Sequence record: NC_073075 | Source of the DNA: Escherichia phage ZCEC10 | DNA: 44,776 nt | Direction: 5' to 3' (one strand) | Shown here: positions 40,998-44,776 of the stretch, piece after piece | Layout of the letters: every line of letters begins with the position of its first letter | Position numbering within the stretch: the first letter of the stretch is position 1 | Program-made: the position numbers and the translations under genes | The notes under the pieces: generated by a model | Database searches by the model: none | Seen by the model: the letters and a program-made list of their open reading frames with translations, nothing else | Told to the model about the DNA's origin: nothing

Positions 40998-41783
40998 TTA
41001 ACGGCGACGACGTTTACGTGGTGCTTCGTCTTCGTCGTCTTCGTCCTCATCTTCGTCATCGCGGGACTTGCGGCGTTTGCGAGGTTTTTCATCTTCCTCA
41101 TCGTCGTCGTCATCGCGGCGCTTGGATTTCTTGGACTTGCGCGGCTTGTCATCTTCATCATCGTCATCACGACGTTTTGACTTCTTAGCCTTGCGCGGTG
41201 CTTCGTCTTCGTCGTCGTTGTCCAGGTCTTCATCGGAGCAAGAAGACCCGCCACCCCCGAAGGCTTCACCGTCATCACGGAAGCGTAAACCCAGCAAGCC
41301 AGCACCGAGTCCCTTGCCGTTGGTGTTGTTCCACGCCCAAATATCAAGGGACACGTTGCAATAACAACCAGAGTAGATCTCCTGGCCTTCAATCTCGTCG
41401 CCTTCTACGGTCAGACCCTGTTCGGTCTGCTTCTCACCGAGTGACGTTTGAATGTTTGGCTGTTTGAACGATTTAGCGTTGATGTACAACATGCCTTCGA
41501 ATTCTTCAGTCACTTCGTCGCGCTCGTCACCGTCGCGGACTGCGCATTCCTTCGAATCCTGGGCGTAGTGGCGGTCCATCCACTTATCGGCATTCTTCTC
41601 GGATTTCAGCTTGTCGGTGAGCACTGCGCGCGCTGCCGCTTCCACTTTGTCCACCTGCGGATCTTCTTTATCCAGAAGAATCACGGCACGATATGCCGGT
41701 TTTTGTCCATCCTGTTTAGGGGTGTCACGTTCCCAAATTTTCAGGAAGCATACGCGCACATTTTTCAGGTTGACTTTAGCCAT
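40998..41783 (-). CDS. Single-stranded DNA-binding protein-like (T7 gp2.5 / DUF2815-type) with a long acid/basic repeat tail
   Basis: Start MAKVNLKNVRVCF with GAGGAA RBS; position between exonuclease and polymerase; C-terminal 80 aa of alternating DDDDEDD and KPRKSKKSKRR blocks. Confidence 0.6.
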   Translation of the reverse strand: MAKVNLKNVRVCFLKIWERDTPKQDGQKPAYRAVILLDKEDPQVDKVEAAARAVLTDKLKSEKNADKWMDRHYAQDSKECAVRDGDERDEVTEEFEGMLYINAKSFKQPNIQTSLGEKQTEQGLTVEGDEIEGQEIYSGCYCNVSLDIWAWNNTNGKGLGAGLLGLRFRDDGEAFGGGGSSCSDEDLDNDDEDEAPRKAKKSKRRDDDDEDDKPRKSKKSKRRDDDDDEEDEKPRKRRKSRDDEDEDEDDEDEAPRKRRRR

Positions 41784-41873
41784 TTTCCAATTCCTCATTC
41801 TCACATGTATCGGGGTTATTGGAAGCCACCCCGTTCGGCTTGGTTGCTAATCTACTTGGTTGCGCCTAAGCGG

Positions 41874-42116
41874 TCAAGCATTTTCATTAAAAAGATTTCT
41901 GGTAACGTAGTTGGTGGCGTTATCGATCCAGCTTAACGGCGGGCGATTAATGTTCTTCTCCACCCAATCGACGGCAGCGTCGCTATAACCGTCGTCCAGC
42001 CAGCGGGTTGGATGACGAATCATCCAGGCCACCATTAACACGCCTTGCACGCAATGCAGGAGAAAGCCCAGCGCGCCGATAACAAACATCAATAAGATTG
42101 CGAATACTTTATTCAT
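41874..42116 (-). CDS. Small membrane protein
   Basis: 80 aa with N-terminal TM (FAILLMFVIGALGFLL). Confidence 0.45.
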   Translation of the reverse strand: MNKVFAILLMFVIGALGFLLHCVQGVLMVAWMIRHPTRWLDDGYSDAAVDWVEKNINRPPLSWIDNATNYVTRNLFNENA

Positions 42117-43539
42117 TGCTTAAGTCCTCGTCAGTAGCTTCAGACCACGCAGGGCGCGGGTCGTCAATTGGTGCTAATACAGGTTTAGCCGGTGCGCGCG
42201 TGATTTTATCACACAACTTCGCCCACACTTTCGGCTTCTCGTCCTTAAGTACCTTCTCGGCATCCGTAGGACTGAGCAATGTTTCTTTGTACATCACATC
42301 GCGCTTGATCCGGGCCTTCGTGAAGATTTCAATCACTTCGCTCTCGTCCGCCCACTTACGGATCCCTTCCTTACCGGCAACCATCTTGAGGCCCAGCGAT
42401 TCGCCATCGCCCGCCATGACCGCCTTGAATACCGCGGACTCGATAGCCTTGATGTGCTGGCGCATTGCGTCCAGGCCTTCATAAGCCTTGCGAAGTTCCG
42501 CCGCGCTCATAGCTCCGGGGGCCGCTTCTTTCTTACCACGCTTCGCACGTCGTGCCGCCTTCCTGGCTTCGCGGGCCATATTGCGGTCATGGTTGGCGCA
42601 TTCTTCCTCTGTCGCAATACTCACGTCGTCGCCCAGGTCTTCGTCGGTTGCCGTTGGGGGTGTCATCGTGTCGATTGCGGCCTTAGCGCGGGCACTACAC
42701 TGATCCGCAAATCGACACCACTGGCACGCATCAACGCTGGGCCGGAAGTCTGCGCGGGTGAGTCCCTTCTTGCCGCGGGAGTACGCTTCCAGGGCGGCGA
42801 CAGCACGCTTGGACGCAAACTTCGCGAATATCTCCAGGGCTTCTACCGTAATATCCCACTCCGACGCCCCGCCGCAATACGGCTGGAAGATAACCAGGCG
42901 CACGGTCGTAATGTCGTACATGGTTTTCAGCTTGCGCAGCAGGCCCAGCGCATACAACATAAGCTGTTTGTTCTCTTTCGCCTCGACCTTATGCCGCCCG
43001 GTCTTCAGGTCGCCAACAATCAGCATGTACGTCCCATCGGTCTTTTTCATGACCATGACCATATCGGCAGTACCGAACGTTTTAATCCTGTTGCCGTCGA
43101 TCTCGTAGCCTGAGTGAAGGACGCGGGTCAGATCGGCGCGCATCTCAAGCTGGACAAACTCCGCCACTTCGAGGAGCGGTCGCCAGTGGTCGATGTACGC
43201 GTCGCACTGTTTCACCATGTCGTCGTTGACCAGTACGCCGCCTTTCGGTGCTTTAGGGTGTGCCTTTACCGGCCCCTTTCCTTCGTTCTCGACGTAGCAC
43301 CCTTTATACGTCTTCGCGGTTATCAGCTTCTCACCGGCGATAATGCGGTTTAGCACCACCTCCGATACGGTGTGCATACTCGTACCGTTAATCGCGGCTT
43401 GCCCGGATTCGTTCGGGATATCTTTTTCAACCACCAGGGCGGCGGGGCAACCCATCCACTTTTTAGCACCAGATGGCCCAAGTAATGAGTGTTCCGTATT
43501 GCTGCCGGATTGCGTCTTACGTTTTGGTTTAATCGCCAT
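42109..43539 (-). CDS. Cas4/RecB-like exonuclease (DUF2800-type) with Fe-S cysteine cluster
   Basis: 476 aa; nuclease core IVGDLKTG; cysteine motif CQWCRFADQC; typical partner of the SSB-like and Pol A genes. Confidence 0.7.
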   Translation of the reverse strand: MAIKPKRKTQSGSNTEHSLLGPSGAKKWMGCPAALVVEKDIPNESGQAAINGTSMHTVSEVVLNRIIAGEKLITAKTYKGCYVENEGKGPVKAHPKAPKGGVLVNDDMVKQCDAYIDHWRPLLEVAEFVQLEMRADLTRVLHSGYEIDGNRIKTFGTADMVMVMKKTDGTYMLIVGDLKTGRHKVEAKENKQLMLYALGLLRKLKTMYDITTVRLVIFQPYCGGASEWDITVEALEIFAKFASKRAVAALEAYSRGKKGLTRADFRPSVDACQWCRFADQCSARAKAAIDTMTPPTATDEDLGDDVSIATEEECANHDRNMAREARKAARRAKRGKKEAAPGAMSAAELRKAYEGLDAMRQHIKAIESAVFKAVMAGDGESLGLKMVAGKEGIRKWADESEVIEIFTKARIKRDVMYKETLLSPTDAEKVLKDEKPKVWAKLCDKITRAPAKPVLAPIDDPRPAWSEATDEDLSNE

Positions 43540-43718
43540 TATTCCACCCGTGTAAACTGGACAATTACATATTTCACATTAGCCATGCCCGCTTTTTCGA
43601 CGCGGCGCTTAACTTCATTTTGTGCGTCAACAAAGCAATTGCTTGCGTTGGTGTTTTCAACAATAAAAGAGCAATGGTCGTCTAATTCGTGGCATGTTGC
43701 CAGGACGAAGAATTTCAT
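43539..43718 (-). CDS. Hypothetical early protein (59 aa)
   Basis: ATG at 43718 with GGGAGA RBS. Confidence 0.4.
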   Translation of the reverse strand: MKFFVLATCHELDDHCSFIVENTNASNCFVDAQNEVKRRVEKAGMANVKYVIVQFTRVE

Positions 43719-43969
43719 TATTTTGTCTCCCAGCGGTCGATTGTTTTTGCTTCTGATGCAACTGCGAAGCGAACAAATTCCAGATTGGAATCCGCCCAAA
43801 TATAAAAGTCGGGATTAATAAAGGTGGTGCGCTTAATTTGCGCGGGGGTATTGCGGCGCTTGTCTATTACGGCAACGCGTGACTGAAAATTGCCGATGCG
43901 TTCGAATAGCCAATAATATGGGCGCTGGTCGCGGGAGTCCACCGCCTCGATTAGCGTGAAACGTGCCAT
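43718..43969 (-). CDS. Hypothetical early protein (83 aa)
   Basis: Clean ORF, stop overlaps downstream start. Confidence 0.45.
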   Translation of the reverse strand: MARFTLIEAVDSRDQRPYYWLFERIGNFQSRVAVIDKRRNTPAQIKRTTFINPDFYIWADSNLEFVRFAVASEAKTIDRWETK

Positions 43970-44017
43970 TGTCTCGTCCTCTAAAAAGAGGCCCGCAGAT
44001 TAGCGGGCCGGAATATA

Positions 44018-44530
44018 TTAATCTTCCAATTCGAAATAGGTTTCGACGATTTCTTTTAGCTCTGTGTGGAAGTCTTCGACGTCGTCATCTTCCAGCTTGG
44101 CGATTGATTTGATCTCGAACGACTCCAGCAGGTCGTCGAATTCGTCGTTCGCGTCGTCGTCATCACCGCCAGCGATAATCGCGGCATATTGTTTGATCTC
44201 GTCGCGCATCTCTGCCAGCGGATCGGCATCTTTCTTACCTTTGCCTTTCGCCGGTGCTTTCTTAGCCTTAGCCGGTTTTTCGTCTTCGGCATCGTCGTCG
44301 TCTTCTACGACTTCTTTTTTGGCCTTGCCTTTCGCCGGGGCTTTTTTAGATTTAGCCGGTTTTTCGTCATCGTCGTCATCGTCGTCATCTTCGACAACTT
44401 CTTTTTTGGCCTTAGACGGCTTCTTGTCTTCCTGCTTACCAACGGCAGCGCCAGCGGTTTCATAATGTTTAGCGATGGTTTCCAGTGCTACTACGCCGCG
44501 AGTGATCAGGTTTACGATTTGCTCAAACAT
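44018..44530 (-). CDS. Acidic early protein with tandem acid/basic repeats; first gene of the leftward operon (alternative start at 44710)
   Basis: 170 aa from the ATG at 44530 with GGAG RBS; two near-identical 25-aa units (KKEVVEDDDD..EKPAK.KKAPAKGK.KK); Asp/Glu-rich C-terminus. Confidence 0.55.
   Translation of the reverse strand: MFEQIVNLITRGVVALETIAKHYETAGAAVGKQEDKKPSKAKKEVVEDDDDDDDDEKPAKSKKAPAKGKAKKEVVEDDDDAEDEKPAKAKKAPAKGKGKKDADPLAEMRDEIKQYAAIIAGGDDDDANDEFDDLLESFEIKSIAKLEDDDVEDFHTELKEIVETYFELED
44225..44410. repeat. Tandem direct repeat (about 87 bp, two copies) inside the acidic early gene
   Basis: Two adjacent units sharing ...ggccttgcctttcgccgg..ctttttta.(a/c)(t/c)ttagccggtttttcgtc... 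Confidence 0.6.
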
Positions 44531-44699
44531 GGTATATCTCCGATTGGTTAAGTTTAGGTGTCGGCAGTTAACTTCGTCGGTGGCCTTAACATATTGCCAG
44601 GTTACGCGTTCTCCCGTTCGGGTAGTGGACCTGGTTATATCATCACGGTTGGGAATCCTGACACTTCGATCCGGCCCCTGCGTTGCCCCTCTCCAGTTT

Positions 44700-44776
44700 G
44701 CGTCCTGCATCCTGTCGACGGGGGGAATAATAGATTGGTTGCAGGATGGGTGTCAACAACTAATTTCAAAAAAAAA
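44700..44776. repeat. Terminal direct repeat, right copy
   Basis: Exact match to 1..77. Confidence 0.85.
44727..44756 (-). promoter_or_regulatory. Sigma70-like early leftward promoter (TTGACA-18-TATTAT, minus strand) inside the terminal repeat
   Basis: Minus-strand -35 TTGACA at 44751..44756, -10 TATTAT at 44727..44732, spacer containing TGCAACCAAT; identical copy at 28..58. Confidence 0.45.

Follow-up and report, generated by a model that had tools for sequence, protein, structure and literature searches.

In the genome of Escherichia phage ZCEC10 (sequence record NC_073075; the whole 44,776-nucleotide stretch that we analysed is called the window below), two small open reading frames (ORFs) lie one directly behind the other on the minus strand, immediately upstream of a gene for a DUF2800 nuclease. 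We call them p83 and p59 and their coordinates, together with those of the surrounding features, are collected in Table 1. Comparison with related phages shows that p83 is linked to the nuclease gene in several genera, and that p59 occupies a variable slot between the two in the genus Dhillonvirus, where it occurs as either of two allele types.

Both ends of p59 are TAATG overlaps, one joining the stop of p83 to the start of p59 and the other joining the stop of p59 to the start of the nuclease gene at 43539, and a further overlap, ATGAATAA, joins the nuclease stop to the start of a gene for a protein of 80 amino acids (aa). Shine-Dalgarno-like motifs (AGAGGA-N7-ATG, GGGAGA-N7-ATG and GGGTGGA-N3-ATG) stand ahead of the p83, p59 and nuclease starts. 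We compared the ratio of nonsynonymous to synonymous substitution rates (dN/dS) by the pairwise Nei-Gojobori method across Dhillonvirus relatives, where the pairs are not independent and the values are descriptive. It was 0.05 for p83 (15 sequences) and 0.07 for the nuclease (13), 0.21 for p59 (9) and 0.24 for the alternative allele of its slot (6), and 0.26 for the 80-aa protein (12). An antisense ORF of 109 aa on the plus strand (43489-43818) is interrupted by stop codons in relatives. An Rfam search of the region returned no family above threshold, and a repeat search found none that would account for it. The GenBank record of phage ZCEC11 (OK310512.1 2400-2660; window 43539-43799) gives the second ORF as 86 aa, with a TTG start and an 82-nt overlap with p83; the annotation of relatives, the ribosome-binding site (RBS) and the type B allele described below point to the 59-aa ATG start instead. 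Purifying selection and the RBS and coupling signals suggest that p83 and p59 are translated and, judged by sequence, they are real, conserved and apparently co-expressed early protein-coding genes. The first-pass annotation of this DNA had proposed two translationally coupled small ORFs of 83 and 59 aa, and the coordinates, junctions, RBS motifs and selection all agree with it; nor are the two confined to this phage, a finding that would have counted against them, as both are conserved in relatives. Its statement that the three small proteins have no recognisable motifs is correct for Pfam, NCBIfam and PDB sequences, but all three belong to existing PHROG families of unknown function.

Table 1. 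Features of the p83-p59 locus and of the corresponding junctions in related phages (window coordinates unless a comparison locus, L plus number, is given).
Feature	Position	Strand	Basis
Sigma-70-type promoter-like site, TTGACA-18-TATTAT, 11/12	44727..44756	-	consensus match alone
Acidic early protein gene, 170 aa, isoelectric point (pI) 4.4, phrog_3127; first gene of the leftward unit	44018..44530	-	ORF, PHROG match
Predicted intrinsic terminator/attenuator, GGCCCGC-N6-GCGGGCC then TCTTTTT	stem 44009-43990, to ~43982	-	hairpin and T-tract
p83, 83 aa, phrog_4965	43718..43969	-	ORF, ATG 43969, stop TAA 43720-43718
p59, 59 aa, phrog_9934, type A allele	43539..43718	-	ORF, ATG 43718-43716, stop 43541-43539
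DUF2800 / PD-(D/E)XK nuclease, 476 aa	42109..43539	-	Pfam E 2.6e-66
80-aa protein, phrog_11211, N-terminal hydrophobic segment	41874..42116	-	ORF, PHROG match
Gp2.5/Enc34-type ssDNA-binding and annealing protein (SSB)	40998..41783	-	Pfam/PHROG-type assignment; context as recombination partner of the nuclease
Small hydrophobic proteins after the nuclease	window 41874-42116; L020 5779-6030; L022 4279-4485; L031 5622-5831; L032 4428-4604		
Slot inserts in other genera	L019 4240-4746; L021 2731-2916; L033 2744-3001; L020 4258-4428		p83-homologue/nuclease junction

Genomes of Kagunavirus, Cornellvirus and other Guernseyvirinae carry p83 as well as those of Dhillonvirus, and its place is always shortly upstream of the nuclease gene. 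The end of p83 and the start of the nuclease gene overlap in Hafnia phage TS33 and in four distant lineages of metagenomic origin (L024, L026/L027, L029 and L030), while exactly one small gene stands between the two in Dhillonvirus, in Cornellvirus (Shemara and VSiA), in Kagunavirus (Snoke gp47) and in the Guernseyvirinae of Klebsiella. The p83 hidden Markov model (HMM) matches every one of these syntenic loci, so that adjacency and coupling of p83 with the nuclease gene are conserved across divergent lineages. Co-occurrence is not strict, since nuclease homologues were found in 695 phage records against some 170-190 for p83, the latter figure being an underestimate. In Klebsiella phage 37P2 (L022 2495-2760) the homologue is unannotated and carries an in-frame stop at about codon 30, the sign of a natural pseudogene or else of a sequencing error; truncated p83 alleles were also found on full-length contigs. 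Because some phages have lost or truncated it, p83 would appear to be dispensable.

The nuclease of the window is presumably the orthologue of Bas14_0045, a reading based on the shared domain and on the genus of phage Bas14, which we take to be Dhillonvirus. A 2026 preprint describes Bas14_0045, a DUF2800 protein from BASEL phage Bas14, as a nuclease of AdnA/RecB-like type. By cutting the multicopy single-stranded DNA (msDNA) of type IX retrons it triggers this defence; it tolerates truncation and is dispensable for plaque formation.

The p83 protein is basic (pI 9.6) and matches the phrog_4965 profile, a family of unknown function, over residues 2-83 with an E-value of 2.6e-36, as do all 71 of the 71 aligned family members. 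We obtained no Pfam, NCBIfam or significant PDB sequence match. By tblastn the gene occurs in 191 phage records, about 153 from Dhillonvirus (at least 80% identity) and about 38 from Guernseyvirinae (around 30% identity), a count that is too low since this search misses the Kagunavirus copies. A profile search returned 115 clusters, nearly all of them on contigs of 40-47 kb. Further, an exhaustive HMMER scan of 1.84 billion protein representatives, in which fusions and distant relatives were sought, gave 31 matches, and the credible ones are all small stand-alone proteins of 46-94 aa; a match to a protein of 1824 aa (E 5e-4) looks spurious.

Six residues of the family are invariant (L6, D11, D14, L21, A33 and K46) and six more are conserved in at least 90% of members (Y4, R13, W20, T49, P53 and W80). 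An AlphaFold2 model built with the family alignment reached a predicted local distance difference test score (pLDDT) of 93.5 and a predicted template modelling score (pTM) of 0.84. It has an α+β fold of order β-β-β-α-β-α-β, with a D-x-R-D motif in the β1-β2 hairpin, and K46 and T49 on helix 1. Structural comparison of the model found no solved relative, and among the structures of BFVD only uncharacterised small phage proteins scored convincingly. A weaker lead in BFVD is A0A8E7KY21, a 252-aa protein of Hafnia phage Pocis76 annotated as polynucleotide kinase/phosphatase (Foldseek E 4.5e-3, query-normalised TM 0.69), in which a p83-like domain could be fused to an end-healing enzyme unless the match is due to chance. 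The Rtp protein rtp10 (96 aa), taken by its length to be the Rtp match in BFVD, has no profile similarity to p83.

The second gene, p59, is of a different kind. It is limited to Dhillonvirus and was found only on contigs of Dhillonvirus size. Its product is near-neutral (pI 6.1, with 8 D/E and 7 K/R) and has no Pfam, NCBIfam or significant PDB sequence match. The window allele, type A, was found by tblastn in 52 phage records; a type B allele of 62 aa, about 40% identical to A, fills the same slot in about 100 records including that of SECphi18, with 13 weak cross-matches. Both types belong to phrog_9934, of unknown function (E 2.6e-38 for type A and 9.9e-36 for type B). As the two together come close to the total of about 153 Dhillonvirus records with p83, almost every member of the genus has one type or the other. 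The flanks of the slot are near-identical in sequence, and the allele type does not follow the identity of the nuclease. Types A and B share V5, L6, C9, C28 and A32 without exception and are almost uniform in the β1 core and the β3 strand; they vary in the helix and loops. The AlphaFold2 model, again made with a family alignment, has a pLDDT of 93.8 and the topology ββαβ.

The same junction holds unrelated genes in other genera. Shemara has an HNH endonuclease there, VSiA and Snoke each have a DUF551-like protein and the Klebsiella phages a phrog_1997 protein, and nothing is inserted in Hafnia TS33 or in several of the metagenomic relatives. On this comparative evidence, the p83/nuclease junction is an insertion hot spot for small unrelated genes.

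The leftward unit begins with the acidic early protein gene, whose product is conserved in its C-terminal part in Guernseyvirinae. The promoter-like site ahead of it, which would drive the leftward early transcript, is the sole near-consensus site within 41700-44776. Between the acidic gene and p83 lies the intrinsic terminator, with its stem and T-tract kept in 17 of the 17 Dhillonvirus loci aligned, and the RBS of p83 comes directly after it. Given this conserved terminator, p83 and the genes downstream would form a read-through unit and not the first genes of the transcript. Beyond the 80-aa gene there is a short gap, followed by the genes for the Gp2.5/Enc34-type annealing protein and DNA polymerase A. 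The first-pass annotation was therefore right to place the small genes between the acidic early gene and the replication and recombination genes, but its description of them as the start of the leftward operon has to be given up, as promoter, acidic gene and terminator all come before p83. The small membrane protein that it proposed downstream of the nuclease is in keeping with our analysis: the 19-residue Kyte-Doolittle mean of the 80-aa protein peaks at 2.57 around residues 4-22, a hydrophobic N-terminus that fits one transmembrane helix.

The 80-aa protein is itself variable in the genus, with alleles about 44% identical in two relatives and no detectable copy in the HK578-like locus L016. 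In relatives from Klebsiella and Hafnia and, weakly, in Jersey, the nuclease gene is followed by genes for unrelated small hydrophobic proteins that overlap or abut its stop; the proteins at this position have no obvious mutual sequence similarity, and that of VSiA is not hydrophobic.

Several further features of the region were observed. The terminator stem, found at the same site in L002-L018, is a perfect palindrome and its 6-nt loop reads TAATCT or the reverse complement AGATTA, as well as ATATTA and AGAATA; the presence of loops in both orientations suggests flip inversions of the hairpin. The acidic gene contains an 84-nt (28-aa) internal tandem duplication (44224-44391) in which poly-Asp blocks alternate with Lys/Ala-rich ones, and the C-terminal tail of SSB (40998-41200) has alternating acidic and basic repeats in a similar pattern. 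Just upstream of the SSB gene there is a promoter-like site, TTGACC-17-TAGATT (41849-41877, minus strand). A published study reported SSB-promoter mutations in some Retron-Eco8 escapers of SECphi4, SECphi6 and SECphi18, which fit an SSB-specific promoter at this site.

Over 2,977 bases (41800-44776) the window matches Escherichia phages ZCEC11 and ZCEC12 at 100% identity and about 150 other Dhillonvirus phages at 93-95%, among them HK578, EP23, SECphi18 and several BASEL phages. The public ZCEC11 record is a permutation of the window sequence. Positions 1-77 of the window repeat 44700-44776 exactly, a match seen at this length alone. It has the look of a k-mer overlap left by circular assembly and not of a terminal repeat of the phage itself, in which case the unique genome would be 44,699 bp and the leftward promoter, which lies inside the duplicated stretch, is present twice in the window. 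A plus-strand gene at 235-564 carries the label 'DNA recombination nuclease inhibitor gamma' in the records of ZCEC11 and phage bob, and 'transposase' in others. Its product matches helix-turn-helix (HTH) families only (HTH_23, HTH_28 and Sigma70_r4_2) and is more likely a transcription regulator heading the rightward operon; no recognisable Gam is present.

From the observed coupling signals, synteny, distribution, allele structure and folds we infer the following functional scheme. The p83 gene and those downstream would be transcribed with the recombination and replication genes by read-through of the conserved terminator, and translated as a coupled chain leading from p83 to p59, the DUF2800 nuclease and the 80-aa membrane protein. 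In this chain p83 would be a lineage-wide companion of the RecB/AdnA/Cas4-like nuclease, most likely an accessory factor with no enzymatic activity of its own, which binds or modulates the nuclease, or the recombination machinery of nuclease and Gp2.5-like annealing protein; it would be useful enough for strong purifying selection and yet dispensable. On the other hand, p59 would be a later, Dhillonvirus-specific insertion at the p83/nuclease junction, whose A and B types are exchanged as a cassette without regard to the genes on either side, and its product would most likely bind a host component through the variable face formed by helix and loops, as a host-modulating or counter-defence accessory. 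The reading that we favour, tentatively and at somewhat less than even confidence, makes p83 a companion of the nuclease and recombination genes that is under constraint and yet dispensable, and p59 a lineage-specific accessory cassette.

Several points weigh against this reading. Homology searches tie neither p83 nor p59 to any activity; adjacency and translational coupling are widespread where phage genomes are compact, and neither is proof of a physical partnership. Jerseyvirus jersey keeps the nuclease, at 56% identity to the query from VSiA (Cornellvirus), but no p83 was detected in the 7.4-kb stretch examined around it, where an acidic-type gene immediately precedes the nuclease gene, and thus the nuclease does not need p83. 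As for p59, positive selection was not seen, regional ratios of nonsynonymous to synonymous differences (pN/pS) being at most 0.38. In the last 11 codons of type A the synonymous proportion (pS) is 0.03, so that the conservation of the C-terminus is partly at the nucleotide level, and this probably reflects the translation-initiation region of the nuclease rather than protein function.

A less likely possibility is that p83 and p59 both serve host takeover or anti-defence, and that each neutralises an immune or housekeeping protein of the host early in infection. Their early position, small size and lack of housekeeping homology are in line with it, p83 is dispensable in some phages, and small proteins that counter defences or are sensed by them are known from other parts of Dhillonvirus genomes. 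There is more room for such a role in p59, a genus-restricted variable cassette with two deep allele types at a junction that takes unrelated inserts in sister genera, than in p83, whose constraint equals that of core enzymes and whose synteny with the nuclease holds across genera, both unusual for a counter-defence gene. Nothing relevant was matched in Pfam, NCBIfam, PHROGs or PDB sequences, and the small proteins of this genus with proven phage-defence roles in the literature searched, anti-Tmn (phiSMS22 ORF35) and Ksap1 (the KpAvs2 trigger), are different genes: phiSMA8 lacks anti-Tmn and carries both p83 and p59, and Ksap1, of 74 aa, is encoded between methyltransferase and phosphatase genes. 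Likewise, the triggers of RAZR (portal), Retron-Eco8 (SSB) and Borvo (DNA polymerase) are all other genes, and the other escape loci published for SECphi18 and SECphi4 are the portal, SSB and DNA polymerase. A literature search on p83 and p59 found nothing published.

The fold of p59 is also in line with the host-takeover idea, since it resembles those of T7 Gp2 (PF16857), an inhibitor of host RNA polymerase, of the T4 antitoxin Dmd and of AcrIC9. However, ββαβ is a very common small fold, Dmd and AcrIC9 have no sequence relationship to p59, and the ribosomal protein eL20 and a designed protein score above both of them in the fold comparison. Neither p59 nor three other alleles matched PF16857 in Pfam even at E≤10, against 4e-28 for T7 Gp2 itself, and hhalign of p59 with T7 Gp2 gave a probability of 0.1%. 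The two also differ in character: by residue count the net charge of p59 is about -1 and that of T7 Gp2 about -5, and p59 has neither the strongly acidic surface nor the conserved β3 Arg pair of T7 Gp2, only a single Arg in its C-terminal TRVE. Besides, there is no phage RNA polymerase among the 78 annotated features of the ZCEC11 record, so shutting off the host polymerase would be self-defeating.

It is rather improbable that p83 or p59 is a modulator of host RecBCD or other nucleases, that is, a functional analogue of lambda Gam, T7 gp5.9 or P22 Abc2. The genomic setting invites the comparison. P22 arf/abc, lambda gam and T7 gene 5.9 are, like p83 and p59, small, non-essential, co-transcribed and next to exonuclease and annealing-protein genes; P22 arf lies beside recombination genes and T7 gene 5.9 upstream of the gene 6 exonuclease, positions mirrored by p83 and by p59, the latter directly upstream of an exonuclease gene. 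The annotated Gam being an HTH protein, the phage has no recognisable Gam, and P2 OLD, which RecBCD inhibitors can activate, has been reported to restrict Dhillonviruses. On the other side, we detected no sequence, family or fold similarity of p83 or p59 to these proteins, neither of the two is acidic or has the character of a DNA mimic, and the nuclease is a DUF2800 PD-(D/E)XK enzyme, not one of the lambda Exo, RecE or FEN type.

We also consider, as a long shot, that p83, p59 or both are a control module that tunes or masks the DUF2800 nuclease, and so sets its detection by nuclease-sensing defences such as the type IX retron. Were this the case, the two allele types of p59 would bear witness to an arms race with a nuclease sensor, and p83 would be a new-fold nuclease regulator common to several genera of enterobacterial siphoviruses.

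We give little credence to the idea that p59 has hardly any function as a protein, and is instead a translated leader feeding ribosomes to the nuclease start or a selfish filler at the hot spot. It would make sense of the TAATG coupling, of the nucleotide-level conservation at the 3' end of p59 and of a junction that takes unrelated inserts or none. Yet dN/dS is well constrained within both allele types (0.21-0.24), the two types, for all their identity of only about 40%, have invariant residues in common, Cys9 and Cys28 among them, and the model is compact and confident, all of which argues for selection on a folded protein. Finally, ORFs this short do arise often by chance in DNA of such composition, and the ZCEC11 record gives the second one a different, overlapping start, but chance reading frames or annotation artefacts are effectively refuted: the ORFs are conserved in more than 150 genomes, their dN/dS is well below 1, they have RBS and coupling signals and confident folds, and the antisense ORF is broken.

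As genes, p83 and p59 are conserved hypotheticals already in public families, and if they turned out to have no phenotype they would be ordinary ones. What is new is that p83 is linked to the nuclease, that p59 comes in two allele types and that the junction is an insertion hot spot. Two look-alike genes are thereby told apart, one a candidate nuclease companion found in several genera and with no solved relative of its fold, the other a genus-specific cassette with two alleles. The nuclease next to p83 belongs to a type recently shown, in Bas14, to trigger retron defence. Given that Dhillonviruses figure in the BASEL collection, in phage therapy and in studies of defence systems, these uncharacterised early genes are practical targets.

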